From Candidatus Sulfomarinibacteraceae bacterium (lineage in GTDB: Bacteria; Chloroflexota; Anaerolineae; Promineifilales; Promineifilaceae), in NCBI GenBank assembly GCA_035464315.1, contig DATHSI010000227.1, positions 1 to 42,078 of the forward strand: a DNA stretch of 42,078 nt, in the 5' to 3' direction. The notes beneath the pieces were generated by a model, which had not been told where the DNA came from, ran no database searches, and was given only the letters and a program-made list of their open reading frames with translations. Position numbers and translations under genes: made by a program. Below, piece by piece: positions 4,608-31,941 of this stretch; position 1 is the stretch's first letter, and each line of letters opens with the position of its first letter.

Positions 4608-5588
4608 TTGTGTGGGCAATCGATCCCAAAACGAGCTCAAGGAGAAATTCCGACCCTGTTTGATAGCATTGCAGATATTCCAGGAGTTGATCAGGATCTG
4701 TCGCCAGAGGCGCGCCAGGGGCTGCAGTTGTTTTGGGACGTATACCGCGAGCGTTATCAGGACGCCGAGCGCCACCTGCAGCAGGAGATGGCCGATCATG
4801 AGGTGTTTGGCAAATTTGTAAAGCAGGTAGATCCGGATCAGGCTGCCGAGCAGGGCAGACGCTCGTATCAACTACTTGACGACGCCATTCGTAATGACAA
4901 CTGGGGCGCTTACTTCAGTCACCTGGGCCAGCAGGGCGCCTATTATGCCCATCGCGACGTGCGTTTTGCCAGCTGGTTTGAAGTGATTCGTAGCCTGGAG
5001 CGTTTCATAATTCCACACCTCATCGACGCTTACGGGGACGACGAGGCCCAGTTTGAACTCGCGCTGTGCGGCATGTCCACCTACGTGACGATGTCTACGG
5101 CGGTGCTCAGTGAAGCGTATATGTCGGCGAAAGAGGAAACGATTGTGCGACAACGGGAAGCGATCCGCGAGCTTTCCACACCCGTGTTACAGTTGCGCGA
5201 CGGATTGTTGATCTTGCCGATTATCGGTGTGCTGGACACGCAGCGCGCGCAACAGTTGACCCACACGCTATTGCACGCCATCCGCCGCCTGCGGGGGCGT
5301 ATTGTGGTCATCGATGTTACCGGCGTGCCCGTCGTAGACTCGCAGGTAGCCAGCTATCTGATACAGACGGTGGATGCTGCACGGCTTATGGGCGCCAAAT
5401 CGATATTGACCGGCCTTTCGCCGGAAGTTGCCCAGACGTTGGTCACCGTTGGCGTCGACCTGCGGGCGGTCTTGACGTTGGGCGATCTTCAGAGTGGTTT
5501 GGAGAAAGCGGAGCATTTCCTGGGATACCGCGTGGAAAAGCATGACGATACTGGCTATTGGGATGGGGGCCAGGAGCAGATACCGTGA
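4608..5588 (+). CDS. rsbR: RsbR-like stressosome sensor (N-terminal non-heme globin-like domain + C-terminal STAS)
   Basis: C-terminal STAS signature LLILPIIGVLDTQRAQQLTHTLL...IVVIDVTGVPVVDSQVASYL. The N-terminal ~170 aa helical domain has RsbR-like architecture. The start codon is uncertain: the frame has no ATG near the N-terminus and the track start at 4608 is a TTG. Confidence 0.7.
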   Translation: MCGQSIPKRAQGEIPTLFDSIADIPGVDQDLSPEARQGLQLFWDVYRERYQDAERHLQQEMADHEVFGKFVKQVDPDQAAEQGRRSYQLLDDAIRNDNWGAYFSHLGQQGAYYAHRDVRFASWFEVIRSLERFIIPHLIDAYGDDEAQFELALCGMSTYVTMSTAVLSEAYMSAKEETIVRQREAIRELSTPVLQLRDGLLILPIIGVLDTQRAQQLTHTLLHAIRRLRGRIVVIDVTGVPVVDSQVASYLIQTVDAARLMGAKSILTGLSPEVAQTLVTVGVDLRAVLTLGDLQSGLEKAEHFLGYRVEKHDDTGYWDGGQEQIP

Positions 5589-5959: not shown

Positions 5960-6368
5960 GAAACGGGTTGCGATTCAAGGTACGAGCGACATCGTCAGCG
6001 CCCGCCAGCAGGGCCGCCAGTTGGCCATAGATCTCGGTTTCAGTACCAGTGACCAGGCTTTGATCGCCACGGCCATCTCCGAGGTGGCGCGCAACATTGT
6101 TCTATACGCCAGGTGGGGCGCGATCACTTTCTCCATCGTCGAGAAAAACGGGCGGCGGGGTATGCGCATCGTTGCCACCGATGATGGGCCAGGAATTAAA
6201 GACGTTGAGCTTGCCATGCAGGATGGCTATTCCACAAGCCAGGGGCTGGGTCTGGGGTTGCCCGGCGCCCGTCGTCTGATGGACGATTTTGAACTTGAGT
6301 CAGAAGTGGGACGCGGCACGACCATCGTCATGAGCAAGTGGTTGAAACCTGATATCGTCCGGCCGTGA
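5949..6368 (+). CDS. rsbT: RsbT-like serine kinase (GHKL/HATPase_c anti-sigma-regulatory-factor type)
   Basis: 139 aa with ISEVARNIVLYA...TDDGPGIKDVELAMQDGYSTSQGLGLGLPGARRLMD, typical of RsbT/RsbW-type kinases. It sits directly after the STAS protein and overlaps the rsbS 3' end. Confidence 0.7.
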   Translation: MDSEKRVAIQGTSDIVSARQQGRQLAIDLGFSTSDQALIATAISEVARNIVLYARWGAITFSIVEKNGRRGMRIVATDDGPGIKDVELAMQDGYSTSQGLGLGLPGARRLMDDFELESEVGRGTTIVMSKWLKPDIVRP

Positions 6369-6979
6369 GTGTAGGCAGGATCATCGAAGTTGGCGTGGCG
6401 GCTGCTCCTCATCCGGGCCAACTGGTTTCTGGAGATCGCCACACCATCGTACAACGCGAGGAAGGAGACGTGCTGGTTGCACTGGTCGACGCCCTGGGTC
6501 ACGGTCAGGAGGCCGCCGCGACGGCGGCGGCGGCCGTAACCGCGATTGAGACGTATGCCGGAGAGTCGTTGGTAACGCTGGTCGAGCGTTGCCATGAGAA
6601 GTTGCGACGCTCGCGGGGCGTGGCCATGAGTCTGGCTCACTTTTCGCCCGGCGGACGTCTGCGCTGGCTCAGCGTAGGCAATGTGGACGGTGTGCTCCTC
6701 AGTAGCGACCACAACAATCTCTTTAGCACAAGGCACATGGTGTTGCGTGGAGGAGTTGTTGGTTACCGCCTTCCCCCGCTCAAACTTCGAGAGATAGACG
6801 TCTCAGCGCGCGATATCATGATCATGGCCACAGATGGCATCCGGCGGGACTTCGCCGCGGCTGCCCACGCCGGCAGACAGGACCCCCAGGTCCTTGCTGA
6901 CTCTATTCTGCAGAGGTATGGGCGAAGGTCTGATGATGCACTGGTTCTCGTCGCCGAATATCGTGGAGAAACGTCATGA
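6365..6979 (+). CDS. rsbX: RsbX-like PP2C/SpoIIE-family serine phosphatase
   Basis: LVALVDALGHGQEAA and MIMATDGI motifs of PP2C-type phosphatases. ~200 aa single domain, as for RsbX. GTGA overlap with rsbT. Confidence 0.65.
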   Translation: MSVGRIIEVGVAAAPHPGQLVSGDRHTIVQREEGDVLVALVDALGHGQEAAATAAAAVTAIETYAGESLVTLVERCHEKLRRSRGVAMSLAHFSPGGRLRWLSVGNVDGVLLSSDHNNLFSTRHMVLRGGVVGYRLPPLKLREIDVSARDIMIMATDGIRRDFAAAAHAGRQDPQVLADSILQRYGRRSDDALVLVAEYRGETS

Positions 6980-9414
6980 CTGTCCAGGCCGATTATTTCC
7001 AACAACAGTACGCCACAGCCTTGCGGGAGTTCCTGCGCAGCGGTGACGAGCAGGCGCTACAGACAGCGTATGAATTGGGCCGCTCGGCGACGCAGTCGGA
7101 GCTGCCGCTATTGGACCTGGCGACCATCTACCACGAGGCGCTGCGCTCTATGCTGGTCAGAGAGGCGTCTCCCGGCGAGGAAGTGGCGTTGCTCACGGCC
7201 GCCGGCACCTTTTTCCTGGAGAGCCTGACCTCGCTGGAGATGACGCTGCGCCGCCTGCAGGAAACCAACCGCTCCCTACGCGTGCTCAACGACCGCTTGC
7301 AGAAGGCCAACGAAACGCTGGAAGAGCGAGTTCAGCAGCGCACGTCCCGCCTGAGCCAAAGCGTGCAACTGTTACAAAAGGAAATCGCGCGCCGGCATCG
7401 CGCGCAGCAGGCGCTACGCGAGAGCGAAGCGCGTTATCGGCGTCTGGTGGAGCGCTCGCCGGCGCCCACGGCGGTTTTTACACAGGATGCTATTCTCTTC
7501 GTCAATACTGCCGCCACCCACCTTCTTGGCGCACGAGAGCCCGAGGAGCTGGTCGGGAAGCCGGTCACCTCGATCTTGGCGGAAGGCAGGCGGCAGGGGA
7601 TGTTGCAGGGGATCGATGCTATGCTGGCAGAGGGTAATGAGTACGCCCCAGTGGAAGTTCAGCTGGTGCGCCTGGATGGCGAAATCATCGACGTGGAGAT
7701 TGTAGCCACCCATATCGCTTACGAAGGGCGCACGGCGATTCAATTAGTCGGCTACGACGTAACCGAGCGCAGGCAGGCAGAGGCAGCGGAGCGCGAGCAG
7801 CGCGCATTGGCTGAAGCATTGGCTGCCTCAGCGGCATCCCTGAACCGCACCCTGGACTTCGACGAGGTTTTGCAGCGCGCCCTGATTCACATTGACAATG
7901 TGCTGCCGCACGATGGGGCCAATATCATGCTTATCGAAGGAGACGTGGCGCGGGTTGTACACTGTCGCGGCTACGATGAACGGATTGATCGGGGACGCAT
8001 CGTCGGCCTGGAGCTGCCGATGAATCACGTTGGCCCGCTGCGCCATATGTGGGAGAGGGGAGAAGCTATCGTCATTTCCGACACACGGCACAATGACCAG
8101 TGGTTGACGATGGAGCCCACTGCCTGGGTGCGCTCCTACGTCGCGGCACCCATCCGGTTGGAGGGCGAGACGATAGGTTTTCTCAGCGCGGACGGCGCCC
8201 GGCCCAATCAGTTTGCGGCGAAGCACGCAGAACGTCTGACGGCCTTTGCTGACCAGGTGTCTCTGGCCATGCAAAACGCGCGTCTCTACGAACAGTTGAG
8301 CAACTACAGCGCTTCTTTGGAACAGGCGGTGAGCGAGCGCACGGAGGAACTGCAGGCGGCTAACAAACGGCTGGAAACGATTCTGCAATCGGTGGGTGAT
8401 GCGCTACTGGTCGTCGATCAGCAGGGGCGAGTGGAACAGGTGAACCCGGCCTTTGAACAACAGACGGGCTACGGGTCGGACGCCGTGCGCGAGCGCCGTC
8501 TCTCCGATTTCCTGCCGGGGCTTGAGATCCCCTGGCAGACGCTTCGGGAGAACACATCTGCCGGCGAGAAGCCAGGTCTATGGCACGGTGAGTTCCAGTT
8601 GGAGCGTAGCGATGGTACGCTCTATGATGCCGCAGTGACGGTGGCGCCCCTTTATGATGGCGACGGTGACCACACCGGCTTCGTAGCCGCCCTGATGGAC
8701 GTCAGCCTGCTCAAGGAAGTGGCGCGTAGCAAGGATGCGTTCGCCGCCAACGTCTCGCACGAGCTGCGCACGCCTATCACCAGCCTGAAGCTGAATCACT
8801 CCCTTGCCTCACATAGCGAAGAGGGCGAAAATCCTTACCTGGAGCGGCTGGGTCGGGACATCGACCGGCTAAATTCGCTCATCGAGGATCTGCTACGTCT
8901 ATCGCGGTTGGAGCAAGGGCAAGTGGAACTGGAGCTTGACGCGGTAGATCTCGGCGCCCTGGCGCGCCGCTATGTGGAAGACCGCCAGGCGTTGGCCGAG
9001 AGCCTTGGTCTACAATTGGAGTTTCGCCAGGAAGGCACATTCCCCACAATCAACGCCGATCCCGGCCTGTTGGAACAGGTTGTCAGCATTTTTCTGACCA
9101 ATGCCATGAACTATACTCCGGCCGGAGGCGAGGTGTTGGTGACTGTGGAATCGCGGCGCAGCGAAGGCCGTGATTGGGTGGGGGTTCGCGTGAGCGACAC
9201 AGGGCCGGGCCTCACCGACGACGATCAGGCGCACCTCTTTGAACGCTTTTATCGCGGCAAAACGGGGCTGGCATCCGGCGTGCCCGGCACCGGTCTGGGC
9301 CTGAACATTGCGCGCGAGATCGTAACGCGCCACGATGGCCACATAGAGGTGCAAAGCGAGGGCGTTCCGGGCAAGGGTGCTGCTTTCACGGCCTGGTTCC
9401 CGGCGCCTGCCTGA
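6976..9414 (+). CDS. sensor histidine kinase: RsbU_N-like N-terminal domain - coiled coil - PAS - PAS - GAF - HisKA - HATPase_c
   Basis: N-terminus DYFQQQYATALREFLRSGDEQALQTAYELGRSATQSELPLLDLATIYHEALRSML aligns by eye with B. subtilis RsbU N-domain (REVIEQRYHQLLSRYIAELTETSLYQAQKFSRKTIEHQIPPEEIISIHRKVLKEL). H-box FAANVSHELRTPITSL. G-box GTGLGLNIAREIV. ATGA overlap with rsbX. Confidence 0.8.
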   Translation: MTVQADYFQQQYATALREFLRSGDEQALQTAYELGRSATQSELPLLDLATIYHEALRSMLVREASPGEEVALLTAAGTFFLESLTSLEMTLRRLQETNRSLRVLNDRLQKANETLEERVQQRTSRLSQSVQLLQKEIARRHRAQQALRESEARYRRLVERSPAPTAVFTQDAILFVNTAATHLLGAREPEELVGKPVTSILAEGRRQGMLQGIDAMLAEGNEYAPVEVQLVRLDGEIIDVEIVATHIAYEGRTAIQLVGYDVTERRQAEAAEREQRALAEALAASAASLNRTLDFDEVLQRALIHIDNVLPHDGANIMLIEGDVARVVHCRGYDERIDRGRIVGLELPMNHVGPLRHMWERGEAIVISDTRHNDQWLTMEPTAWVRSYVAAPIRLEGETIGFLSADGARPNQFAAKHAERLTAFADQVSLAMQNARLYEQLSNYSASLEQAVSERTEELQAANKRLETILQSVGDALLVVDQQGRVEQVNPAFEQQTGYGSDAVRERRLSDFLPGLEIPWQTLRENTSAGEKPGLWHGEFQLERSDGTLYDAAVTVAPLYDGDGDHTGFVAALMDVSLLKEVARSKDAFAANVSHELRTPITSLKLNHSLASHSEEGENPYLERLGRDIDRLNSLIEDLLRLSRLEQGQVELELDAVDLGALARRYVEDRQALAESLGLQLEFRQEGTFPTINADPGLLEQVVSIFLTNAMNYTPAGGEVLVTVESRRSEGRDWVGVRVSDTGPGLTDDDQAHLFERFYRGKTGLASGVPGTGLGLNIAREIVTRHDGHIEVQSEGVPGKGAAFTAWFPAPA

Positions 9415-11060: not shown

Positions 11061-11089
11061 TTGACCAGGGCCGGGCCCACTGCTATAGT
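11061..11089 (+). promoter_or_regulatory. candidate sigma70-type promoter (TTGACC - 17 nt - TATAGT) upstream of the ECF sigma gene
   Basis: TTGACC at 11061-11066, a 17-nt spacer, TATAGT at 11084-11089. Located ~90 nt upstream of the start codon. Confidence 0.35.
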
Positions 11090-11175
11090 TGCCACTCGAA
11101 GCGACTGCCGAGCCTCCACTGAATATCCGTTGAGTTGTCCTGGCACTGCCCGGACCCTGTCAAAGAAGGACATAC

Positions 11176-11874
11176 ATGCCTGCGAACGACGTTTTCAAAT
11201 CGTTGGCGCTGGACATGCTGGCCCAGCGTTGCGCGGAAGAAAGTGATCACTTCTTTCACCGCAGGGAGCATGACCCACGATACTGCTACGAGCTGTTTCG
11301 GCGGGCCATAGTCGAGCACAATGAGGCAGCGTGGGCCAGGATTTGCCGCAACTATCGGCCCCTTGTCGCCGGCTGGGTCAAGCGACAGCGCGCCTTTCGC
11401 CAGTCAGGCGAGGAGGTCAGTTTCTTTGTTAACGGCGCTTTCGCCAAGATGTGGTCGGCGATGTCCCCTCAGAAATTCGATTCATTTTCTGATCTAAAAT
11501 CCCTGCTGCGCTATCTTCAACTGTGCGTGTCCAGTGTTGTGACCGACTACGCGCGGAACGCCGACTATCACCAGATGTTAGATGATTTGCCGCCAGGCAT
11601 TGAAGAAGCTACTGGTGTGGACGTGGAGCAACGCGCCCTGGACAGCACGGTGCGTTCCAGTTTCTGGCAGGCGGTGGATGCTCGCCTTAACGACGACAAG
11701 GAGCGGCTCGTCGTTCACTATTCTTACATAGTGGGTTTCAAGCCCGGCGATATTTATCGCGAGCAGCAGGAACTTTTCGATGATGTACGCGAGATTTATC
11801 GTATTAAGGAAAATGTCCTGGCGCGGTTGCGCCGTGACGATGCTTTGCAACAATTGTTGCGACAGCATGCCTGA
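11176..11874 (+). CDS. ECF-type sigma-70 family factor
   Basis: Region-2-like segment YELFRRAIVEHNEAAWARICRNYRPLVAGWVKRQ...FVNGAFAKMWS. Region-4 HTH-like segment RLVVHYSYIVGFKPGDIYREQQEL. Confidence 0.7.
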   Translation: MPANDVFKSLALDMLAQRCAEESDHFFHRREHDPRYCYELFRRAIVEHNEAAWARICRNYRPLVAGWVKRQRAFRQSGEEVSFFVNGAFAKMWSAMSPQKFDSFSDLKSLLRYLQLCVSSVVTDYARNADYHQMLDDLPPGIEEATGVDVEQRALDSTVRSSFWQAVDARLNDDKERLVVHYSYIVGFKPGDIYREQQELFDDVREIYRIKENVLARLRRDDALQQLLRQHA

Positions 11875-11934
11875 AAACGGTGCTGACTCTCGTTCATTAG
11901 GGCAAAGAAAGGTGGGTTGTAAGAGGAGAAACCC

Positions 11935-12654
11935 ATGAATGAAGAGCACAGAACCCCGCAGGCCAGCGATGCGGAACTGCTGGTCTACCTTGATGGTGAA
12001 CTACCACCCCGACGTGCCCGTGAAATTGAACAATCCGCAAGTAACCGTCAGCGATTGGCCGAGCTGGCGCAGCAAGAGCGCCAGCTGAAGCAGCACCTCT
12101 ACCGCAGCGCCTGCCCTGATGCCCATCAACTGGGCGAATACCATTTGCAGTTGCTCTCTGGGCCGGAGGCGGAGCGCATTGCAGCACACCTCGAAATCTG
12201 TCCTTATTGTGCGCAAGAGCTAAAGCAACTACTGGCGTACCTCGATGACGTGGCATCCGAACTGGAATACAGTGTGTTGGAGCGCCTAAAGGTGCTCGTG
12301 GCGCGGGTGTCGCCGGATCTGGGCGTTGGCGGTCCCCTGGCAGAGCCGGCGCTGGCAGGCGTCCGAGGCGACGATACGGGCCCCCTGGTTTACAGAGCAG
12401 AGGATGTCCAGGTCTCGCTGGAGGTGCAGGATGACGTCAACGCCGCCGATCACCGCAGTGTATTAGGCCTGGTCCTGGGCGCCGATGCGCAGGGTTGGGG
12501 CGTTTATCTCTGGCGCGAAGATGAGGAGATAGCGGACACGACGGTCGACGAGTTGGGCAACTTCATGCTCAGTGGCGTCGAACCGGATACCTATCGCCTC
12601 TTGCTTCACGGTGAACAGGTCCTGATCCACATTCCGGAACTCACTGTTTCCTGA
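11935..12654 (+). CDS. soluble zf-HC2 anti-sigma factor
   Basis: HLEICPYCAQELKQL matches the Hx3Cx2C zinc-finger anti-sigma motif. No predicted TM helix. Immediately downstream of the ECF sigma gene. Confidence 0.65.
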   Translation: MNEEHRTPQASDAELLVYLDGELPPRRAREIEQSASNRQRLAELAQQERQLKQHLYRSACPDAHQLGEYHLQLLSGPEAERIAAHLEICPYCAQELKQLLAYLDDVASELEYSVLERLKVLVARVSPDLGVGGPLAEPALAGVRGDDTGPLVYRAEDVQVSLEVQDDVNAADHRSVLGLVLGADAQGWGVYLWREDEEIADTTVDELGNFMLSGVEPDTYRLLLHGEQVLIHIPELTVS

Positions 12655-12659
12655 GGGAG

Positions 12660-15611
12660 ATGCCGGGTCAGGCAACCTGTTCCTATTTAGCGACCGCTGA
12701 ATTGCTTATGAATATAGAAGATGTGCTGGCGCAGTTGTGGGCCTTGCCCGACAGCGTAAGCCGGCGACGATTTCTGGATGAAACGGCCGCTGCACGGACG
12801 CCGGCCCGGTTGCAGGAATTGGGTGTTGCCCTGAAGGCCAGCGCCGACCAGTTCCTGCACAGTAACATCGAGCGCTGTCTGGAGGCGGCGGCGCTGTTGC
12901 AGCATCTGGCCCAAACCAGCGGATACGTATCGCTGCGCGCCTTAGGCTTACTGGCCGAAGCCAATGCCCGGGCCATTGGGTTGAGCGAGTACCGGCAAGC
13001 GATCACGCTCTATAATGAGGCGGGAGACATCTATGAGGCAAATGGGCAGGATGAAGAGTGGGCAAGGGCGCAGATCGGCAAGCTGTGGCCTCTTGCTACC
13101 CTGGGCCGCTATGATGAGGCTTTGAAAACGGGCCGGCGGGCAGCGGTCAAGTTGCGCGCCGCCGAAGCCTGGCTGCCGTTGGCCAAATTGACGTCTAACA
13201 TTGCCATTATCTACGGGCGCATGGGGCAGGATCGTGAGGCGCTGGCCAACTTTGAGGACGCTCGCGATAGCTACCGCCAGTTAGGGGAGAAGGGGCGTCC
13301 TTACCTGGCGCGGGTTGAACTGAACCGCGCCATCATTCTGCGTAATCTGGGCCGCTTCCAGGGTTCTATCGCCGCCAGCGAGGCGGCGCTGGGCTACCTG
13401 CCGGAAGGCGCCGAACAGCGAATCGACCGCGCTCGCGCAAAGCAGAGCCTGGCTATCACCTATTTCGTCCTGGGCAAATATAACGAGGCGCTTCAGCTCC
13501 TGGACGAAGTGCGCGACGTTTTCCTCGACGACGGGCGCCAGCGCGACGCCATTCTCGTAGAGCTGTTTATCAGCGACTGCCTCCTGCAGTTGCGCCGTTT
13601 CAGGGCCGTTCTGGAAAAGTGTGCCCAGGTGCGGGCTCTTTTTCAGGATTTGGGCACGCGCTTTGAAGTGGCCCAGGCTGTGCTCAATGAGGCAGTGGCT
13701 TATGCGGGGTTAGAGCAGTACGAGGCAGCGGACAGCTCATTGCAGGAAGCGCGCGATCTGTTTCGGCAGGAGAACAACGAGGTCTGGCTTGCATTTGCCG
13801 ATCTGGAGTGGGCATCTTTGCTGCTTCACCAGGGGCAGCTGGAGGAGAGCGGCGCTATTGCCCGGCGCTGCGCCGCCATTTTTGGCGACCAACAGCAGGT
13901 GGTGCCCCAGGCGCAGGCCTGGCTGGTGGCGGCGCGGGCAGCTGCGGGCCAGAATCGCGTGGCGCGGGCGCGCGAACTGCTGCGGGAAGCGCTGGCGGTC
14001 GGTGAAGAACATTCGCTGCCTACGCTCGTCTACCAGGCGCGTCACCTTCTGGGGGGGCTGGCGCGGGACGCACGGAACGGCAGCCAGGCGTTGCAGCAGT
14101 TTGACGCGGCTATTGAGGCCCTGGAGCAGCTACGTGGACGCTTGATGGTGGAGTATCGCGCCGATTTTCTGGAGGACAAGAACGTCCTTTACGAAGACGC
14201 CGTGAGCCTGTGTGCCGAGTTGCAACGCCCGCAGCTGGGCCTGGAGTATGCCGAGCGGGCTAAGTCCAGGGCGCTGCTCGATTTGCTGGCCTACCGCCTG
14301 GACGTGGGCCTTCAGGCCCGTCGTGAGGAAGACCATCCACTCGTCGCCGAGCTGACGGCGCTGCGTGCGGAACGTGATCGTCTCTACCGCCGTTGGCAGA
14401 GCGGTGAAGGGCACACAGAGCGGGGCTGGGCCACCGCCGACGACGGCTGGCAGGAAGCGCAGCAGGACGTGTTGCGCATCGAGAATCGCATCACAGAATT
14501 ATGGCACCGGCTCCTGATCCATAACGCCGACTATGCGCGGGATGCTGCGCTGTGGCAGGTGCGCACCGAACCGGTACAGCCCTATCTGGATGATGATACG
14601 CTGCTGTTGGAATATTTTGTGGCCCGCGGGCAGCTGTTACTTTTTCTGGTCACGGCGGAATCCATCGAGGTGCAGCCGCTGGCAGCGCCTATGGCGCGCG
14701 TGCAGCAGTTGTCGCAGCTTCTGTGGCTTAACCTGCGCTCCGTTCCCCGCAGCGATGCGTCGCAGGAGGCGCACCTGACCAAAAACGCGCGCGCCATCCT
14801 GCAACGGCTCTACGATCTCCTGTTGCGCCCGCTGCTGCCACGTCTGGAGCAGTGGCCGAAAGTGATTGTGGTGCCCCACGGCCCATTGCACTATCTGCCC
14901 TTCCATGCCCTGCACGATGGACGGCGCTATCTGCTGCAGGATCACGAGGTCAGCTATCTGCCCGGCGCCAGCTTCTTGCGCTATTGTCATCAGGCCACAC
15001 TGGGCCACGACGCAGGGCCGGTGGGCACGGATGTGGTGGCTGTGGGCCATTCCCTCGGCGGATCGTTGCCCTACACGGTGGACGAAGCTCGCGCTGTGGC
15101 TTCGCTGTGGCAGGGACAGGTCCTCGTCGAAGAGGAAGCCACGCGGCAGGAAGTGGGCCGCATGGCGGCCCTGGCCCGGCTGTTGCATGTAGCGGCGCAC
15201 GGTGACTTTCGCCCCGATAATCCCCTCTTCTCCGGCCTCTCTCTGGACGATGGCTGGCTGACCACCCTGGATATTTTCAACCTTCGGCTGCAGGCGTCGC
15301 TGGTCACGCTCAGCGCCTGCCAGACCGGGCGCAATGTGGTAGCCGGCGGCGACGAGTTGTTGGGCCTTATGCGCGCTTTTCTCTATGCCGGGGCTGCCTC
15401 TCTGGTGCTCTCCTTTTGGGCCGTAGAGGATCGCTCGACGGCGCGGCTGATGGAGACCTTCTACAACCGGCTGGCGCGCGGAGAGAGTAAAGGGGCCGCT
15501 CTACGGGCGGCACAGCGCCACTTTATCAGTGATGGCCACTCTGCCGGAGAAGAACCGCATCCCTATTACTGGGCTCCATTCTTCCTGGTTGGGGCCACCA
15601 CCGCTCTGTAG
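12660..15611 (+). CDS. TPR-repeat protein with C-terminal CHAT (caspase-like) protease domain
   Basis: N-terminal ~600 aa of TPR-like helical repeats. The C-terminal domain has the His/Cys dyad context LLHVAAHGDF and LVTLSACQTGRN typical of CHAT domains. No signal peptide. Confidence 0.8.
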   Translation: MPGQATCSYLATAELLMNIEDVLAQLWALPDSVSRRRFLDETAAARTPARLQELGVALKASADQFLHSNIERCLEAAALLQHLAQTSGYVSLRALGLLAEANARAIGLSEYRQAITLYNEAGDIYEANGQDEEWARAQIGKLWPLATLGRYDEALKTGRRAAVKLRAAEAWLPLAKLTSNIAIIYGRMGQDREALANFEDARDSYRQLGEKGRPYLARVELNRAIILRNLGRFQGSIAASEAALGYLPEGAEQRIDRARAKQSLAITYFVLGKYNEALQLLDEVRDVFLDDGRQRDAILVELFISDCLLQLRRFRAVLEKCAQVRALFQDLGTRFEVAQAVLNEAVAYAGLEQYEAADSSLQEARDLFRQENNEVWLAFADLEWASLLLHQGQLEESGAIARRCAAIFGDQQQVVPQAQAWLVAARAAAGQNRVARARELLREALAVGEEHSLPTLVYQARHLLGGLARDARNGSQALQQFDAAIEALEQLRGRLMVEYRADFLEDKNVLYEDAVSLCAELQRPQLGLEYAERAKSRALLDLLAYRLDVGLQARREEDHPLVAELTALRAERDRLYRRWQSGEGHTERGWATADDGWQEAQQDVLRIENRITELWHRLLIHNADYARDAALWQVRTEPVQPYLDDDTLLLEYFVARGQLLLFLVTAESIEVQPLAAPMARVQQLSQLLWLNLRSVPRSDASQEAHLTKNARAILQRLYDLLLRPLLPRLEQWPKVIVVPHGPLHYLPFHALHDGRRYLLQDHEVSYLPGASFLRYCHQATLGHDAGPVGTDVVAVGHSLGGSLPYTVDEARAVASLWQGQVLVEEEATRQEVGRMAALARLLHVAAHGDFRPDNPLFSGLSLDDGWLTTLDIFNLRLQASLVTLSACQTGRNVVAGGDELLGLMRAFLYAGAASLVLSFWAVEDRSTARLMETFYNRLARGESKGAALRAAQRHFISDGHSAGEEPHPYYWAPFFLVGATTAL

Positions 15612-15702
15612 ATCTTTCCGGAAAAGACGCTCGCTCTTCGTTTACATCCATGAAGTAGTTCCAGAGAGGGCTGCTTCTTTTCATCGTCTTAAATCGTGCC
15701 CT

Positions 15703-17445
15703 ATGCAACCGGAGTTCGTCATCATGTTGAAACGTCATTCGCAACTCTTTCTGCTCATCGCAGCCCTGGCAGCTTTTTCCCTGCTCGCCGTGGGCTGCCA
15801 GCCACAGCCGGAGCCGACGCCAGCACCGGAACCGTTCCCCGCACCGGTTGAGTTTGAGGCCAACGTCCTGCCGCCCGGTCCCGATCTACCCCGGGTCCAA
15901 TTGCGTCCGGGCCAGGCGCTGGTCGACGAACAGCTTGTGATCACCGGCGTCGGCGCAGACATCGACCGCGTGCTCGGTGCGCTGCCCGAGTTGCAGCTAG
16001 AGCCGTTGACCAGCACCTCTTTCGACTACCTGGAACGATACCAGTTGCCTGCGCCGGGCGGCGACCGGGATCAGCAGCAGAGCGTGGGCAAACGGCGCCG
16101 CAGCGGTCTGAGCTCCGTCATGCAGCAGGAGATGGCCACCCTGCGCGTTGACCTCTACGCGTTCTCCGCTGGCACTCCGCCGCTCTCCGACACACTGCAG
16201 ATCATCGCCGACACGGTTGAAGAGCTGGGCCAGGAACAGCAAGTACGCGTGGTCGCCGAGCCCAACTATGTGATGGGCTTCGAGATTACGGGCGACCCCT
16301 GGGCGGTTGAAGGCAGCCCGTGGGCCGTAGAGGGCAGCCCCTGGGCCGTGGAAGGGAGCCCCGCCGACGGCGGGCCGCATGCCAGCGATCACTTCTGGCA
16401 GCAGTGGGCCTTAGATGCCGGCAGCGGCATTGGCTTATTCTCTGCCGGCGCGCCTCCCGCCGGGCGTAATGCGGAGGGCGTGGGCGAGGGGATACGCGTT
16501 GCCGTTTTCGACACCTCGCCGTTTTCCGGCCCCGGCGGCTACCGTTTTGATCGCTGGGGACCGCCGGATGTACCGTCGCTGGCCCTCACTGTTTCAGAGC
16601 CGGTGGTGGTGCCCGTTTCTATGACCGGCGAGGATATTGTACTGATCAGCGACCACGGGCTCTTTGTCTCCGGCCTGGCCTACGCTGTGGCTCCCGCCGC
16701 CGAGATTCACCTGGTCAAGGTGTTGAATGAGCATGGGCAGGGCACGCTGCAGGCTTTCATCGACGCCCTGAACCTGTATATGCAGGAAAACGCCTCTCCG
16801 CCGGACGGCCTGAACAATACGATTATCAACCTCAGCCTGGGCACGTCGGAACCGGATGACGAGGAACTGCCGCCGGAAGCGCGACGCGCCATTGCGCGCA
16901 TGCTGGCGGTGTGGGGCTACCGGCCTCTGGCGGGCGAAGACAGCGTCGTCTTTTCGCTGGAATTGCCCATGCTCATCGCTGAAGGGCTGGGAGCCACCAT
17001 CGTCGCCGCTTCGGGCAATGACTCCATGAGCCCGCCGGAGGCCGCGCCGCTGCCGTCGCAGATTCCCGCCGCCTATCCGCAGATCCTTGGGGTCGAGGCC
17101 AGCAACCAGCAGCAGGCGCGTTCCTGCTTTGCTAACGAGGGCGATCTGGCTGCCCCGGGCGGCGATGGAGACGCCAACTGTGAGCCGGACCTGGAAGCCT
17201 GCGAAGGCATCGAGGGCGGCAGTTGCGGGGCCGGCGTTGTGAGCTATGTGCTGGCGGAACACGAGGGATTCGCCTACTGGGCGGGCACTTCGTTTGCCAC
17301 CCCCCTGGTCAGCGGCCTGGCGGGCCTGGTCCAGGAGGCGGGCGCCGGCAACCCCGACGTGGTACGTCAGACGGTGCTCTGCTCCGCTCAGAACACGGGC
17401 ATCGTAGATGTGGTGGAGGCGCTGACCAGTTGTGCCACGCCGTAG
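15703..17445 (+). CDS. subtilisin-like (S8) serine peptidase lipoprotein with PWAVEGS heptapeptide repeats
   Basis: Signal/lipobox LLAVGC. Asp region AVFDTS, His region SDHGLFVSGLAYAV, Ser region GTSFATPLVSGLAGL. Start taken at ATG 15703 (alternative 15724); the track ORF is extended upstream. Confidence 0.7.
   Translation: MQPEFVIMLKRHSQLFLLIAALAAFSLLAVGCQPQPEPTPAPEPFPAPVEFEANVLPPGPDLPRVQLRPGQALVDEQLVITGVGADIDRVLGALPELQLEPLTSTSFDYLERYQLPAPGGDRDQQQSVGKRRRSGLSSVMQQEMATLRVDLYAFSAGTPPLSDTLQIIADTVEELGQEQQVRVVAEPNYVMGFEITGDPWAVEGSPWAVEGSPWAVEGSPADGGPHASDHFWQQWALDAGSGIGLFSAGAPPAGRNAEGVGEGIRVAVFDTSPFSGPGGYRFDRWGPPDVPSLALTVSEPVVVPVSMTGEDIVLISDHGLFVSGLAYAVAPAAEIHLVKVLNEHGQGTLQAFIDALNLYMQENASPPDGLNNTIINLSLGTSEPDDEELPPEARRAIARMLAVWGYRPLAGEDSVVFSLELPMLIAEGLGATIVAASGNDSMSPPEAAPLPSQIPAAYPQILGVEASNQQQARSCFANEGDLAAPGGDGDANCEPDLEACEGIEGGSCGAGVVSYVLAEHEGFAYWAGTSFATPLVSGLAGLVQEAGAGNPDVVRQTVLCSAQNTGIVDVVEALTSCATP
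16297..16359 (+). repeat. 3 x 21-bp imperfect tandem repeat encoding PWAVEGS x3 inside the S8 peptidase gene
   Basis: ccctgggcggttgaaggcagc / ccgtgggccgtagagggcagc / ccctgggccgtggaagggagc. Confidence 0.6.
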
Positions 17446-17528
17446 CTGCGGTGGTTGCCAAGATCAGAGATTGCGTCAGTGCTGTATTGCCGGGCCAGCA
17501 TCGGGTTCATCGCACCCTCCTTTGTTAA

Positions 17529-17558
17529 CTTTACGTAAATATACGACTATGCTATAGT
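17529..17558 (+). promoter_or_regulatory. candidate promoter with extended -10 (TTTACG - 18 nt - TGcTATAGT) for the LysM gene
   Basis: AT-rich island in a GC-rich genome. It is followed by a short hairpin (ggggcgaagcccc) and a GAGGAGG SD before ATG 17618. Confidence 0.4.
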
Positions 17559-17617
17559 AAGCGGCAAAGATTGGGGCGAAGCCCCTTCGTCACTGTCTCA
17601 GTTGAGGAGGTGTAGAA

Positions 17618-18616
17618 ATGTCATCACGACAGAGCGTATTGAAGATAGCAGCATTCCTGCTTGTCGTGAGCCTGTTCCTGGCTGCGTGCGAGCGTCCCTT
17701 GCAGGACGCCGGCGACACGGCTGAGGAGGTGGCGACCGAGGTGGCCCAGGAGCTGGAAGAGGTGGATGGTGAGGAGGCGCCTGAGGAAACGGTGGCGCCC
17801 GCGCCAGATGAAGCCGAGGAAGCGGTGGCGACTGATGAGGAGACACCGGAAGCGACAGAAGTGCCAAGTGCGACGCCGGCGGACACGCCAGAAAGCGAAG
17901 TAGAGGACGACGCCTCGCCGCGGGCGGGTGATGACGAGGAAGCTGAGCCTACTGAAGAGGCGCAGGCTGACGACGAGGAAGAAGCGGAAGCGGCGGAAGA
18001 AACCGCGGCAGAAGACGAAGAAGCGGAGTCGGCAGAAGAGGAAATGGAAGCGGCCGAGGAGGAATCGGCGGAAGAAGCTGCGGCCACTGAGGCGGAGACG
18101 ACCGGGGAGGAGCGCGTGCACGTGGTGCAACCCGGCGAGAATTTGTACCGCATCGGCCTGCAGTACGGTATTTCCTGGGTTGTCCTGGCTGAGTACAACG
18201 GCATTCCCAACGCCAACGCCATCTACACGGGCCAGCAGATTCGGATACCGGCGACAGATGACGCCACGCCTACGCCTACGCCAACGCCGGATCCGTCTGC
18301 AGAGACGACGTACGTGGTGCAACCGGGTGACAATCTGTATCGTATTGGGCGCGCCTATGGTGTGAGTTGGGTGGAGATTGCCGAACTGAACGGCATTGTC
18401 AATCCCAACCAGATTTACGCGGGACAGGAGTTGCGGATCCCGGCTGAAGAGCCGGATCCCGCACCACAGGTGACGCACACGGTGCAGGCAAACGAGACGT
18501 TGTTCCGGATCAGCCTGCAGTACGGCGTGTCCTGGACGAGCATTGCCGAGGCCAACGATCTGACGTCGCCATACGTTATCTATCCCGGCCAGACGCTGGT
18601 TATCCCAGGCGGATAG
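17618..18616 (+). CDS. lipoprotein with acidic low-complexity region and three LysM domains
   Basis: Lipobox LAAC. Three repeats of the LysM pattern (HVVQPGENLYRIGLQYGISW..., YVVQPGDNLYRIGRAYGVSW..., HTVQANETLFRISLQYGVSW...). Confidence 0.75.
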   Translation: MSSRQSVLKIAAFLLVVSLFLAACERPLQDAGDTAEEVATEVAQELEEVDGEEAPEETVAPAPDEAEEAVATDEETPEATEVPSATPADTPESEVEDDASPRAGDDEEAEPTEEAQADDEEEAEAAEETAAEDEEAESAEEEMEAAEEESAEEAAATEAETTGEERVHVVQPGENLYRIGLQYGISWVVLAEYNGIPNANAIYTGQQIRIPATDDATPTPTPTPDPSAETTYVVQPGDNLYRIGRAYGVSWVEIAELNGIVNPNQIYAGQELRIPAEEPDPAPQVTHTVQANETLFRISLQYGVSWTSIAEANDLTSPYVIYPGQTLVIPGG

Positions 18617-29236: not shown

Positions 29237-29403
29237 GAGAGATTGGAGATTGGTTGACTGGAGATTGGTTGCGGATGGCGCCATAGCGCCAAGCCGATAA
29301 ACGCAGATAATTTGAGATCTTTCATCAGCGTCTATCGGCGTCCATCGGCGGCAAAGATTCTCCAATCTCCAGTCTCCGATCTCCAATCTCCGATCTCCAA
29401 TCC
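29237..29403. repeat. GGAGATY-heptad inverted-repeat element, copy B (two arms of tandem heptads flanking an ~80-nt core), between convergent stop codons
   Basis: Left arm ggagagattggagattggttgactggagattggttgcgg. Right arm tccaatctccagtctccgatctccaatctccgatctccaatccc, i.e. (GGAGATY)n inverted. The core contains the palindrome atggcgccat. The element abuts the TAG of tag (+) and the TAG of the minus-strand GT-C gene. Confidence 0.6.
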
Positions 29404-31941
29404 CTATTCTCTCACAACCACCGGTCCCAATATGTACCGATCCCCAACCAGGTTGCCCTGCGCGTCGGCCAGGTGCAGGCGGCGACCGCTGGTCATTTCG
29501 TAGAGACCGACTTCGATGAAGTAATCGCCCGGTGGGAGGTCGTCCCTGATCGTCAGGCGATAGGGGTCCCACAGGCGTTGGCCGGGGAGCCACTTGGGAA
29601 TCCACAGGTGGGTGGGGGCGGCGCCGCCCAGGGGCGTGTAATCCAGCTCTTGATAGGAGCGGTTGGCGGCGTCGATGAGGTGCACGAAGACAGTATAGCT
29701 TTCCTCAGCCTGCGCCAGACTACGCCACTGCAAGAACAGATTGATTGTGTCGCCGTTCTGCACCGTCAGCGGCGTCTGCCACGGGCCGCGGCGCAGCGAT
29801 AGACCGCTCTGGGCCCAGGCCATAGACAACCCCACACGCTGGCGGAAGTTGGCCAGGAGCTCGTCTGTGTGCGGCGGGCGCGGCTGCGCCCGGACCTCTA
29901 GCGGCCCCAGTTCCACGTCCAGCGGCAGAAGCTCGTCCTGGCTCAGGTTCTTGAGAGCCAACGACAGCGGGTAGCTGCCCGCGGGCAAATCGTGGGGCAG
30001 TGCGAAGTCGAAACGTTCTACAATTACCTCTTCCGGTTCCCACAGCGGCGTCAGGAGGTGGTGGTCCGTCGTGTAAGTGTATTCAATGGCCTGCTTATCG
30101 CCTCCAGACGGCACGCCGCCCAGCGCGAGCGAGGGCACGTAGTACTCCTCCGGCGTTTGTGGTGCACGCATGGCCAGGACGAGGGGCACGAAGTCGCCCG
30201 CCGTTACCTCGCGCCGGGGCAGCCCGTAACCAACGACCTCGATCTCCCCCGCCGAGACCGCAAGCTCGTCCAGCTCCGGCGGGATGGATTCCTCGCCCGG
30301 TTCCACCACCTCGTAGAACGGTCCGCGCGGTCGCAGCCGGAAACCGGCGGCGACAATCTCGCTGCGGTAGCCGTTAAGGTAGACGGGGCCGCCGCCCAGG
30401 TAAGCGTAGACGCTTTCCACCCACGGTTGTTGTGTGGAGACGAATTCGGGGCGCACGTCGGTGGGATCGGGCCAGCGCTCGTTTACAAAGCGCTCGTACC
30501 ACATGGGCGTCATGTGCTCCCAGTCGTGCAGCAGCACGGCGCGCTCGGCGCGGCCCTCAAAGTAGTCGAAAACCGCTTCCACATAGCCGCGTCCCTCGTC
30601 GTAGTCGCGCAACGAAATGTGCGGCAGGTTGCGCGCGGCCTGTTGCACGGGTCCCAGCAAAAAGAAGACGGCGACGAGCAAGGCTGCGACGCGCGCGGTG
30701 GATTGTGCCCACCGGCCGGACTGCGTCCAGCGGCTGGATAAAATCCAGCTTGGCGCGGCGTGTACGACGGCCAGCAGCCCCAGGCCGGAGAGCATGCCCC
30801 AGAGCATGAAGGGTCCCAGCAGGTAGGCCATGATGTCCTGCGCGCGCAGGCTGATGACGAACGCGTAGTTGGCCAGGAAGGCCACACCGTAGAGCAGCGC
30901 CAGCCGCCGGCGCAGCGGGCCGGCGCGCCACAGCCACAGCAAGCCCAGCGGCGCCAGCAGGATGGTGGGCAACGCGTACTGCAGCCGCATCAGCGTCCAG
31001 AAAACGAGGGTGCGCAAAGGCTGTTCGGCCAGGCTGTAGAAGGGCAGGCTCTCCGTCAGCCCGCGGGCCAGAACGTGGTCCAGAAAGCCCTGTAGCGTGT
31101 TCATGTTGTGCGGCCCGAACACCGGCTCCATCGCGCTGCGCAGAGGGAAGTAGAGCCACACGCTTAACCCCAGCAGCGCCATCAGCAATGTCCTGACGAT
31201 GGTACGTCCCTGACGCCAAATGCCGGGGCGCACGGTAAGGATGAACAGGCCATAGGCGGGGAAGCCGAAGACGGTCAGTGGATGGTGCGTGATGCCCAGC
31301 CCGGCGGAGAGAGCGAAGATGTACAGCCAGCGGTCGTCCCCCTCATCGGTCAACTTGCCGGCGTCTCCGGCGTGGGAGAGTCCCCAGCGCGTCAGGAGGT
31401 AGAGGTTGGCCATGAGGAAAGTGGCCGTGATGATGTGCGGGTTGGCGTGAATGGCGTGTTGCCACACGTCGGTTGCCAGGCCCACGGACAGCGCGCCGAA
31501 TAGGGCCGCCCACCCCGCCGGGAATCGGTCTGGCTCACGCCCGGCGACGGCGCGGATCATTCCGTATATGAAAATGGCGGCAACCGTGGCGCTGGTTGCC
31601 GACAGCAGGTGCATGCGCCACGGAATGTCGCCCAAGGGAATCAACGTCTGGAACAGTTTGCCGGCGAGGGTGATGAAGGCATACCCTGGCGGATGGGCGA
31701 TGCCCAGCACGTTGGCCACCAGCGTATACTCGGTCGGATCGCCGAGGACGAGGGAGCGGGCGAGGGTGAGGAGATAGAGGAGGGGAAGGGCGAGGAGGAG
31801 TAGGGGCTGGAGATTGGAGATTAGAGATTGGGGATTAGAGATTGGAGATTGGAGATTACTGGCACGCCTCGCCGCTCGCCGCTCTCCGCTCTCCGCTCTC
31901 CGCTCTCCAATCACCATGCCCTTACTTCCTGATTGCGTCAT
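29404..31941 (-). CDS. DUF2723/TMEM260-like GT-C family membrane glycosyltransferase (protein O-mannosyltransferase-like)
   Basis: Polytopic N-terminal half with GDPTEYTLVANVLGIAHPPGYAF (the DUF2723 signature region), then a large C-terminal soluble domain. The first ~40 codons of the track ORF are encoded by repeat copy C; the true start may be ATG 31917 or further downstream with a non-ATG start. Confidence 0.6.
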   Translation of the reverse strand: MTQSGSKGMVIGERRAESGERRAARRASNLQSPISNPQSLISNLQPLLLLALPLLYLLTLARSLVLGDPTEYTLVANVLGIAHPPGYAFITLAGKLFQTLIPLGDIPWRMHLLSATSATVAAIFIYGMIRAVAGREPDRFPAGWAALFGALSVGLATDVWQHAIHANPHIITATFLMANLYLLTRWGLSHAGDAGKLTDEGDDRWLYIFALSAGLGITHHPLTVFGFPAYGLFILTVRPGIWRQGRTIVRTLLMALLGLSVWLYFPLRSAMEPVFGPHNMNTLQGFLDHVLARGLTESLPFYSLAEQPLRTLVFWTLMRLQYALPTILLAPLGLLWLWRAGPLRRRLALLYGVAFLANYAFVISLRAQDIMAYLLGPFMLWGMLSGLGLLAVVHAAPSWILSSRWTQSGRWAQSTARVAALLVAVFFLLGPVQQAARNLPHISLRDYDEGRGYVEAVFDYFEGRAERAVLLHDWEHMTPMWYERFVNERWPDPTDVRPEFVSTQQPWVESVYAYLGGGPVYLNGYRSEIVAAGFRLRPRGPFYEVVEPGEESIPPELDELAVSAGEIEVVGYGLPRREVTAGDFVPLVLAMRAPQTPEEYYVPSLALGGVPSGGDKQAIEYTYTTDHHLLTPLWEPEEVIVERFDFALPHDLPAGSYPLSLALKNLSQDELLPLDVELGPLEVRAQPRPPHTDELLANFRQRVGLSMAWAQSGLSLRRGPWQTPLTVQNGDTINLFLQWRSLAQAEESYTVFVHLIDAANRSYQELDYTPLGGAAPTHLWIPKWLPGQRLWDPYRLTIRDDLPPGDYFIEVGLYEMTSGRRLHLADAQGNLVGDRYILGPVVVRE
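31808..31912. repeat. GGAGATY-heptad element, copy C: (GGAGATT/AGAGATT)x7 followed by (CGCTCTC)x4
   Basis: ggagattggagattagagattggggattagagattggagattggagatt ... cgccgctcgccgctctccgctctccgctctccgctctcc. It overlaps the annotated 5' end of the GT-C ORF on the minus strand. Confidence 0.6.

Follow-up and report, generated by a model that had tools for sequence, protein, structure and literature searches.

What sets free the sigma factor of a locus in which a sigma-like protein, its presumptive zinc-finger inhibitor and a caspase-like protease are encoded one after another, none of them with a membrane segment? The question is raised by contig DATHSI010000227.1, analysed here over its complete length of 42,078 bp (the window), on which five genes lie together on the + strand between positions 11061 and 18616. 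A preliminary description of this DNA had reported a co-directional run of sigma factor, anti-sigma factor and CHAT protease followed by an S8 peptidase and a LysM protein, and the same five genes were recovered in that order:

11176-11874, + strand: sigma-like protein, 232 residues; predicted divergent member of the sigma-70 family, extracytoplasmic function (ECF)-like, two-domain
11935-12654, + strand: anti-sigma protein, 239 residues; soluble zf-HC2 protein of the zinc-binding anti-sigma (ZAS) type
12660-15611, + strand: TPR-CHAT protein, 983 residues; an alternative NCBI start at 12708 would give 967 residues
15724-17445, + strand: S8 subtilase lipoprotein (PF00082); the open reading frame (ORF) opens at 15529
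17618-18616, + strand: triple-LysM lipoprotein; three LysM domains and a LAAC lipobox

Pfam matches were obtained for four of the five proteins (zf-HC2, CHAT with TPR_12, Peptidase_S8 and three LysM) and bear out the domain calls first made for them. The best 19-residue hydropathy segments of the sigma-like, anti-sigma and CHAT proteins reach 0.89, 0.99 and 1.62, respectively, none of which resembles a transmembrane segment, so that the earlier statement that these three proteins carry neither signal peptide nor transmembrane helix stands.

One possible answer, advanced here with reserve since we judge the chances to be rather against it, is a CRISPR-independent cytoplasmic switch in which the TPR-CHAT protease would cut the ZAS anti-sigma factor at an Arg-Gly site and the divergent sigma factor would then drive a local regulon of secreted proteases. 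The gene order, the promoter layout and the anatomy of the anti-sigma protein carry most of the argument and are presented first.

A conserved four-gene cassette

One genome per species was scanned for relatives of the sigma-like protein, which gave 211 loci encoding one, and the best 80 were taken for comparison. These 80 belong nearly all to the Chloroflexota class Anaerolineae (Ardenticatenaceae, Caldilineales, Anaerolineales, Promineifilaceae and Thermoflexales). Gene order was read by BLASTP of all ORFs, and the four-gene order was counted over those loci with at least 5.8 kb of downstream sequence. The anti-sigma gene comes after the sigma gene in 66 of the 67 loci that leave room for it, and the succession of sigma, anti-sigma, TPR-CHAT and S8 genes is kept in 48 of 53, with sigma identities among related loci of 41-93% and flanking genes that vary by lineage. 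Gene order this conserved is far beyond chance. It was the synteny of sigma, anti-sigma and CHAT genes that the preliminary description had put forward as a check on its proposal, and the check came out in favour; the conserved unit is one of four genes, not three plus two.

Promoter layout

Three promoter-like elements accompany the cassette in the window:

11061-11089, + strand: match to a housekeeping (sigma-70/sigA-type) promoter, TTGACC-17-TATAGT with TG, before the sigma gene
11872-11896, + strand: ECF-type motif P_ecf-1, TGAAAACGGTGCTGACTCTCGTTCA, over the sigma stop codon
15620-15644, + strand: ECF-type motif P_ecf-2, GGAAAAGACGCTCGCTCTTCGTTTA, in the gap between the CHAT and S8 genes

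The first of these scores 10/12 and has an extended -10 element, and TTGAC(C/A)-N17-TAnnnT is found before the sigma gene in the close relatives L001, L004, L005 and L006 as well as in L038, L040 and L044. The other two are copies of a motif that can be summarised as GAAAA-N13-CGTT(T/C)A. At the junction of the sigma and anti-sigma genes its consensus is GCnTGAAAAnnG-N10-CGTTTAT and a score of at least 9/12 is attained in 76 of 81 loci, against 64 of 807 random 240-nt control segments at that threshold and 23 of 807 at a score of at least 10. The spacer is mostly 13 nt long and its sequence is not conserved; the AAA and CGTT-A positions are essentially invariant. In the window the -10 box of P_ecf-1 ends 38 nt short of the anti-sigma ATG, and P_ecf-2 is an exact GGAAAA-N13-CGTTTA.

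The distribution of the motif is telling. It stands before the sigma gene in 1 of 81 loci and never between the anti-sigma and CHAT genes, it accompanies the sigma/anti-sigma pair even in loci that have no CHAT gene, and it recurs in the CHAT-S8 gap of 13 loci and behind S8, before further genes, in 18. The genes behind this last copy are mostly small membrane or secreted ORFs, many of them without a Pfam match, and the local regulon seems to be rich in secreted proteins. One such gene, L016:14784-16673, encodes a C25 (gingipain-like, clan CD) lipoprotein.

Because the two boxes are unlike one another and held at a fixed spacing, because their AAA and CGT content is ECF-like and because the motif occurs together with the sigma gene in all clades, the motif can be read as the cognate promoter; that the sigma-like protein is paired with the adjacent anti-sigma protein and recognises this motif is, on sequence grounds, probable. 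It would follow that the sigma gene is constitutively expressed, that the anti-sigma and CHAT genes form one sigma-dependent unit and the S8 gene another, and that feedback runs through the anti-sigma factor and not through the sigma factor. Anti-sigma with CHAT, and S8, are thus probably targets of the sigma factor. Classical autoregulation of the sigma gene was rejected, the motif being absent upstream of it in 80 of 81 loci. The resulting wiring would be unusual, with the sigma gene behind a promoter of housekeeping type and the anti-sigma gene behind one of cognate type, and this apparent promoter layout, together with the conserved membership of S8, is what the present comparison adds to the preliminary description.

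The motif was nonetheless assigned to the sigma factor by co-occurrence only, and GAAAA-N13-CGTTTA could instead be bound by some other regulator or sigma factor, with all four genes transcribed as one operon from the housekeeping promoter. The absence of a second motif copy where the CHAT-S8 gap is very small would suit such an operon. It would be harder to reconcile with two boxes at a fixed 13-nt spacing around a variable spacer, which is normal promoter anatomy, with AAA/CGT content that resembles known ECF promoters, with the presence of the motif beside the sigma/anti-sigma pair in 76 of 81 loci of all clades, CHAT-less ones included, and with the clustering of further copies within a few kb of the cassette. 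We therefore regard an unrelated regulator as distinctly unlikely.

Elsewhere in the window, 2-mismatch matches to the motif at 25020 and 30010 (minus strand) were discarded, being at chance level (1.23 expected) and having no obvious gene start downstream. The S8 leader contains, just past the -10 box of P_ecf-2, a 10-bp stem-loop followed by TTTTCATCGT (15652-15687), which could be an attenuator, a terminator of the CHAT transcript or a chance occurrence (11 terminator-like sites against 6.6 expected). A different element, AAAAnCGnACC-N17-GGGT(T/A)AA, replaces the TTGACA/TATAAT-type promoter before the sigma gene in L032, L037, L042, L046, L055, L056, L061, L064, L077 and L079, a set that includes most loci of the divergent clade discussed below.

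The sigma-like protein

The product of 11176-11874 had been called an ECF sigma factor, and by sequence this call finds little to lean on. No match was obtained to the Sigma70_r2, Sigma70_r4 or TIGR02937 models, the Pfam search to E<=10 gave a spurious DUF only, and neither NCBIfam nor PDB sequences were matched by the single sequence or by a 25-sequence profile. Alignment to Escherichia coli RpoE with hhalign was weak (9.9% probability, E 0.003) and confined to region 2.1-2.2. A HMMER profile run against 1.84 billion representatives returned 2092 sequences at E<=1e-3, 680 of them at E<=1e-30, and described a closed family from which canonical ECF sigma factors were not reached. Actinobacterial relatives were sought by tblastn against the plasmids of PLSDB, with no match.

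The predicted structure tells more. The AlphaFold model (predicted local distance difference test score, pLDDT, 82) consists of two helical domains, and all of the best 50 Foldseek matches to it (50/50) are sigma factors; the fold is one of sigma2 and sigma4 without sigma3. Because of these two helical domains and the uniform identity of the best structural matches, the protein is, as modelled, a divergent ECF-like two-domain member of the sigma-70 family. The first assignment therefore stands on the predicted fold and not on any Sigma70_r2 or Sigma70_r4 sequence match, and the locus exposes a sigma family that the Pfam and NCBIfam models miss.

Two features of the family are recorded here in their own right. 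Residues C19, C37 and C117 are invariant, and sigma2 is preceded by a conserved stretch of about 45 residues that extends the N terminus (CAxET..FF.R..HDPRYCFELFRRA). The cysteines and the extension could form a metal or redox site, or the extension could be regulatory.

The anti-sigma protein and its linker

The anti-sigma protein is divided into a helical part, a linker and a beta-sandwich, with the following elements:

12112-12210, + strand: zinc-ligand set CHCC, residues C60, H85, C89 and C92 (H85-x3-C89-x2-C92)
12346-12369, + strand: linker motif PALAGVRG, residues P138-G145, candidate protease cleavage or docking site
12382-12648, + strand: C-terminal beta-sandwich, CarboxypepD_reg-like, with a VDELGNF motif, residues 150-238

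The protein matches PF13490 (zf-HC2) at E 1e-6 and 29 bits (cut-off 22.2), and the NCBIfam model 'antisigma' as well. An AlphaFold2 model (pLDDT 84) places helices at residues 12-125 and strands at 150-238, with pLDDT below 50 at 126-146. The H-x3-C-x2-C motif lies within the helical N-terminal domain, as is typical of ZAS and zf-HC2 proteins, and in an alignment of 29 homologues C60, H85, C89 and C92 are invariant. With the genes adjacent, this protein most likely holds the sigma factor inactive, and it is predicted to bind zinc. Foldseek with the model returned generic Ig-like and transthyretin-like folds only and did not recover the helical anti-sigma domain; PF13620 (CarboxypepD_reg) is matched by some of the homologues.

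The helical part holds two tandem ZAS-like motifs, of which, in the clade of the window, the first is degenerate (EIEQSASNRQRL) and the second intact. The clade of L062, L065, L068 and L076 is reversed, having lost the second ZAS-like set and kept the CxxC of the first motif, and at least one CxxC or HxxxCxxC (ZAS-like) site is kept in every anti-sigma protein. The same four loci additionally have two tandem S8 genes.

Between the helical, sigma-binding part and the C-terminal beta-sandwich runs the low-confidence linker, and within it P138, A141, R144 and G145 vary little or not at all among the 29 homologues. The form A-[GA]-[VILM]-R-G occurs in almost all loci, including four of the five without CHAT. 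A short, near-invariant motif in an otherwise flexible linker looks like the site of a site-specific protease, or like a docking motif.

The TPR-CHAT protein

The candidate protease matches PF12770 at E 5e-66 over residues 712-979, which cover profile positions 2-289 of 289, and matches TPR_12 as well. Its catalytic dyad is located as follows:

15198-15320, + strand: catalytic dyad, His847 (15198-15200) in HVAAHGDF and Cys887 (15318-15320) in LSACQTG

The dyad had been reported as intact, and comparison strengthens this, H847 and C887 being invariant in 52 of 52 orthologues and aligned with the catalytic His and Cys of the TPR-CHAT protein of Craspase, the protease of type III-E CRISPR systems. 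A complete PF12770 domain with its catalytic His and Cys identifies the protein as a caspase-like peptidase of clan CD. Its closest solved relatives by sequence are the Craspase TPR-CHAT structures 8d9f and 7x8a (E 2e-9, CHAT domain only). The NCBIfam model for the Craspase protease Csx29 (NF041237) was matched at 70.8 bits against a cut-off of 300, again over the CHAT domain only; no CRISPR array was found in the window by Tandem Repeats Finder (TRF) or Rfam, and no Cas family was returned by Pfam scans of its large ORFs. Identification of the protein as a Csx29 orthologue was rejected on these grounds.

How the sigma factor might be released

The explanation preferred here takes the CHAT protein as the input protease, which would dock on the C-terminal domain of the anti-sigma factor and cut the linker, releasing the sigma factor. 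It is read from sequence and we hold it tentatively, at somewhat short of an even chance. The divergent ECF-like sigma factor would be produced from the housekeeping-type promoter and kept inactive by the soluble ZAS anti-sigma factor, and the promoter over the sigma stop codon would drive the anti-sigma and TPR-CHAT unit, the same motif serving the subtilase gene and, at other loci, further secreted proteases and small proteins. The TPR array would read an intracellular cue, TPR-CHAT would dock on the beta-sandwich of the anti-sigma factor, and CHAT would cut the linker, which is exposed, at ...AGVR-G... or beside it (R144-G145 or nearby). The sigma-binding N-terminal fragment would then be degraded, and the released sigma factor would induce the exported S8 protease as its output and re-induce anti-sigma and CHAT, which may act as a reset or feedback.

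There is reason to think that CHAT could be the input, since the anti-sigma and CHAT genes form a seemingly obligatory transcription unit, the Arg-Gly motif of the linker is conserved and the CHAT dyad does not vary in any of the 52 orthologues. Precedent points the same way: DdvA of Myxococcus xanthus joins a ZAS anti-sigma domain and TPR-CHAT in one polypeptide, and cleavage of its flexible linker by CHAT has been proposed as the activating step (PMC11506125), and in Craspase (type III-E) Csx29 cleaves Csx30 and thereby relieves the inhibition of the ECF-like CASP-sigma (Strecker et al. 2022, PMC10028731). In a divergent clade, moreover, the C-terminal half of the anti-sigma protein, CHAT and S8 have diverged jointly, the sigma factor and the N-terminal half being conserved, which counts as one event. 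The mirror-tree correlation between the anti-sigma C-terminal half and CHAT (partial r 0.73) is driven by this one clade of six loci, and co-evolution by this measure was rejected as independent support, since the signal amounts to approximately one evolutionary event and vanishes in the main clade.

An APH-type (APH_6_hur/APH) kinase gene directly follows the anti-sigma gene, in the usual slot of CHAT, at L073:9494-10399 and L080:9436-10395. One enzyme that modifies the anti-sigma factor may here have taken the place of another, which fits the notion of a slot for such an enzyme.

Several observations weigh against CHAT as the input. Five of the 53 loci (L027, L052, L066, L073 and L080) keep the sigma and anti-sigma genes with both proteases missing nearby, and no locus has CHAT without S8 or S8 without CHAT; their joint loss ties CHAT more closely to S8 than to the anti-sigma factor. 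Because sigma, anti-sigma and promoter persist without CHAT in these five, an input independent of CHAT is implied, at least there. Two of them, L027 and L052, look like deletions, since the next gene encodes an F420 ligase, which is also what lies behind the cassette in L001. The mirror-tree correlation within the main clade is 0.29 for the C-terminal half of the anti-sigma protein and 0.39 for the N-terminal half, the former being no stronger than the latter. CHAT and S8, lying behind a sigma-type promoter that is itself tied to the sigma factor through co-occurrence alone, may be regulon outputs only, and redox sensing is possible, every anti-sigma protein keeping a CxxC or ZAS-like site. 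For DdvA, finally, proteolysis by CHAT has not been demonstrated (PMC11506125).

These points converge on a serious rival, the main one, according to which the sigma/ZAS pair is its own sensor of a cytoplasmic cue, such as a ligand bound by the C-terminal beta-sandwich or thiol or redox stress acting on the zinc site, and CHAT and S8 are members of the regulon that mount a proteolytic response. It would account well for the ECF-type promoter before anti-sigma with CHAT, before S8 and, at other loci, before further secreted proteins including the C25 peptidase, for the joint gain or loss of CHAT and S8 with persistence of the sigma/anti-sigma pair without both in 5 of 53 loci, and for the CxxC or HxxxCxxC kept in every anti-sigma protein; the soluble ZAS proteins RsrA, RshA and ChrR, for their part, function without a dedicated protease (PMC8999054). 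It leaves unexplained, however, the near-invariant Arg-Gly of the linker and the additional domain conserved in the anti-sigma protein, gives no account of the consistent lack of a promoter between anti-sigma and CHAT, sits uneasily with a retained zinc site that is the first or the second depending on the clade, and sets aside two precedents, the DdvA fusion and Craspase, that tie TPR-CHAT to anti-sigma function. On balance we consider it somewhat unlikely that CHAT and S8 are outputs only. Were they mere outputs, the cassette would define a new but ordinary regulon.

The S8 subtilase and the LysM neighbour

If CHAT is the input protease, S8 is the predicted output, and its own features bear on the argument:

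16510 (D), 16654 (H), 17017 (N) and 17290 (S), + strand: S8 catalytic residues, Asp/His/Ser triad and oxyanion Asn
16296-16362, + strand: three PWAVEGS repeats, lying after the S8 pro-region and ahead of the catalytic domain

The protein matches PF00082 at E 3e-21 and has the lipobox LAVGC; its start is most likely 15724 (MLKRH, with a GGAG ribosome-binding site) rather than the ORF start at 15529. The D/H/N/S set is invariant in 51 of 51 orthologues, as expected of a subtilase. The PWAVEGS repeats noted at the outset are indeed a tandem repeat, with a period of 21 nt and 3.2 copies (TRF). The P-W-x3-G-S pattern (columns W, G, S and P) is kept across S8 orthologues and is not specific to the window; it could be an autoprocessing junction.

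By hydropathy, both the S8 and the LysM proteins have N-terminal signal/lipobox segments, and the two had been described as exported proteins that follow the triad. Export stands for both, but only S8 has proved to be a conserved companion. No related locus has a LysM gene downstream of S8, and in the window the LysM gene is preceded by a separate sigma-70-type promoter match (17530-17558); the LysM lipoprotein was rejected as a cassette member for these two reasons and probably lies outside the cassette.

Export is not uniform among the S8 orthologues. One N-terminal hydrophobic segment is present in 36 of the 51, two are present in 4 and none in 11. The loci with an unusual S8 N-terminus include L022, L046, L056, L064, L074, L077 and L079, and L036, L048, L059 and L067. 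Those with no segment include L079 and six loci whose CHAT is less than 40% identical to that of the window, and from its sequence S8 looks cytoplasmic in the divergent clade. Where there are two segments a hairpin is possible, which would return the catalytic domain to the cytoplasm.

These S8 proteins matter for an alternative in which the anti-sigma linker or beta-sandwich acts, in the manner of securin, as a pseudosubstrate or inhibitor on TPR-CHAT. A single event, such as oxidation of the zinc site or binding of a ligand, would free the sigma factor and at the same time free CHAT for other cytoplasmic targets, among which pro-S8 would be a possible one in the clade whose S8 lacks a signal peptide. 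TPR-CHAT resembles separase, an enzyme kept in check by a pseudosubstrate inhibitor (PMC11506125). The conserved linker motif and the apparent co-transcription of anti-sigma and CHAT would suit such coupling, as would the 11 of 51 S8 orthologues without an N-terminal hydrophobic segment, six divergent-clade loci and L079 among them. In the window and in most loci, however, S8 is exported and so out of the reach of CHAT, and the proposal is drawn purely by analogy; we consider it unlikely. Under our preferred explanation, with CHAT as the input, the conserved linker motif would instead be the place of cleavage.

Neighbouring genes and source of the contig

Within the window the cassette is flanked by ordinary chromosomal or housekeeping genes, namely those for a luciferase-like monooxygenase, a pyridoxal phosphate-dependent (PALP-family) enzyme, glycosyltransferases, sulfate activation and a group with STAS, PP2C and histidine-kinase products. 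In this last group, which lies upstream, the gene for a STAS-domain protein occupies 4608-5588, that for a PP2C/SpoIIE phosphatase 6365-6979 and that for an RsbU_N-PAS-GAF histidine kinase 6976-9414. Its make-up suggests partner-switching or two-component signalling, and in the other loci the group was not seen to be associated with the cassette.

The flanks are relevant to the suggestion that the cassette is an anti-phage or conflict system, in which TPR-CHAT would sense a phage protein and set off an abortive response, either sigma-dependent or proteolytic. Conflict systems commonly contain CHAT proteases, and all characterised cases in which a CHAT or Lon protease is linked to an anti-sigma factor are defence-related. 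Against this analogy, PADLOC models gave zero families at E<=0.01 for the five proteins, the window has neither a CRISPR array nor Cas genes, and housekeeping flanks that vary by lineage around a cassette kept across several orders of one class are unlike a mobile defence island. A defence island was rejected on the PADLOC result and the housekeeping flanks, and an anti-phage role in general is very unlikely.

Intergenic heptamer tandem repeats (TCTCCAA / TGGAGAT / CTCTCCG / GAGATTG) occur in the window at 29359-29402, 31808-31908 and 38249-38292. In this they are similar to the short heptamer repeats that filamentous cyanobacteria carry in tandem. Similar repeats of the GGAGATT type adjoin the cassette in L043 and L028.

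The metagenome-assembled genome from which the contig derives is labelled 'Candidatus Sulfomarinibacteraceae bacterium' at NCBI, which is a name of the Acidobacteriota, and the relatives of the cassette, including the closest (93% identity), are nearly all Chloroflexota. The label of the contig probably reflects mis-binning, and the same problem seems to lie behind lone matches with the labels Binatia and Roseobacter.

Comparison with known systems

No description of the four-gene cassette, the linker motif or the promoter layout was found in the literature searched, and a search of it for CHAT together with subtilases gave fungal papers only. The preliminary description had presented the route to ECF activation, should CHAT cut the anti-sigma factor, as different from the classical site-1/site-2 membrane cascade. 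Csx29/Csx30, DdvA, CalpL/CalpT/CalpS and the ECF54 gene context are precedents for the concept, so that the interpretation is borne out only in part and is less novel than first supposed; the cassette does differ from both Craspase and DdvA, and it is widespread, uncharacterised and unusually wired. In mechanism the nearest systems are the Craspase axis and DdvS/DdvA, followed by CalpL/CalpT/CalpS.

Like the window, the Craspase axis has a cytoplasmic TPR-CHAT protein encoded beside an ECF-like sigma factor and a soluble sigma inhibitor, with sigma-binding motifs inside the locus itself (PMC10028731). The window differs in having no Cas7-11, no CRISPR RNA (crRNA) or CRISPR array and no Csx31, and its inhibitor is of the ZAS type rather than Csx30. 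The subtilase is a conserved fourth member of the window cassette, and the activating signal cannot be a target RNA.

DdvS/DdvA likewise places an ECF sigma factor under a CHCC zinc anti-sigma factor that is linked to a TPR-CHAT protein of the separase/craspase type, about 900 residues long and with a His/Cys dyad. DdvA, however, is one transmembrane chain with a periplasmic, dimeric TPR-CHAT part, is subject to a subsequent intramembrane cleavage by RseP and controls a CBASS/CRISPR defence island. In the window ZAS and TPR-CHAT come from two genes, at 11935-12654 and 12660-15611, whose products are soluble and cytoplasmic, and the local regulon would be one of secreted proteases. With two genes, and no transmembrane segment in either product, the window protein was rejected as an anti-sigma factor of the DdvA type; DdvA was also not found among the PDB sequence matches at E<=0.01.

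CalpL/CalpT/CalpS reportedly resembles the cassette in combining a soluble, signal-activated protease with an anti-sigma factor and an ECF sigma factor, cleavage being thought to free the sigma factor. CalpL is said to be a CRISPR-associated protease of the Lon type (Lon-SAVED) that is activated by cyclic oligoadenylate, and these features are not present in the window cassette. The system, which belongs to type III CRISPR, is cited in PMC10028731.

By gene context the closest group is ECF54 of the Actinobacteria, which also has subtilase and CHAT neighbours around its sigma factor; in the passage of PMC8999054 that cites Huang et al. 2015, carboxypeptidase, subtilase and CHAT neighbours are given as conserved and proteolytic control is proposed. 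ECF54 differs from the window cassette, as compared by description only, in being described without an anti-sigma factor and in belonging to another phylum, and its 2021 re-classification stresses a 4Fe-4S neighbour. That its 'carboxypeptidase' neighbour is the equivalent of the PF13620-matching anti-sigma protein is speculation.

ECF271, a Chloroflexi group modelled on a protein of Chloroflexi bacterium RBG_16_56_8, OGO36537.1, has a soluble ZAS anti-sigma factor and a mechanism given as unknown (PMC8999054). Compared by description only, it may be the family of the window sigma factor. OGO36537.1 was not among the cluster members of ten NCBI-derived homologues, and a link of ECF271 to CHAT or S8 is not reported in the text of PMC8999054.

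The classical ZAS pairs SigR/RsrA, SigH/RshA and RpoE/ChrR share with the window a soluble H-x3-C-x2-C anti-sigma factor encoded beside an ECF sigma factor. ChrR has an extra C-terminal sensor domain, just as the window anti-sigma protein has an extra C-terminal domain. The classical pairs differ in having no dedicated protease neighbour and in that their sigma factor is normally autoregulated from its own upstream promoter, unlike the window, where the cognate-type promoter lies between the sigma and anti-sigma genes.

Release of an ECF sigma factor by a caspase-like protease has so far been linked only to CRISPR or defence (Craspase, and as proposed for DdvA). The cassette makes the role of stand-alone bacterial TPR-CHAT proteases testable, offering a candidate substrate, a PALAGVRG site, two P_ecf reporters and some 2,000 natural variants, and it may describe the control of secreted proteases in the poorly studied, environmentally abundant, filamentous Chloroflexi. 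If the proposed switch is real, it would be a free-living counterpart of the Craspase/Csx30/CASP-sigma and DdvA arrangements, or possibly the source from which they evolved.

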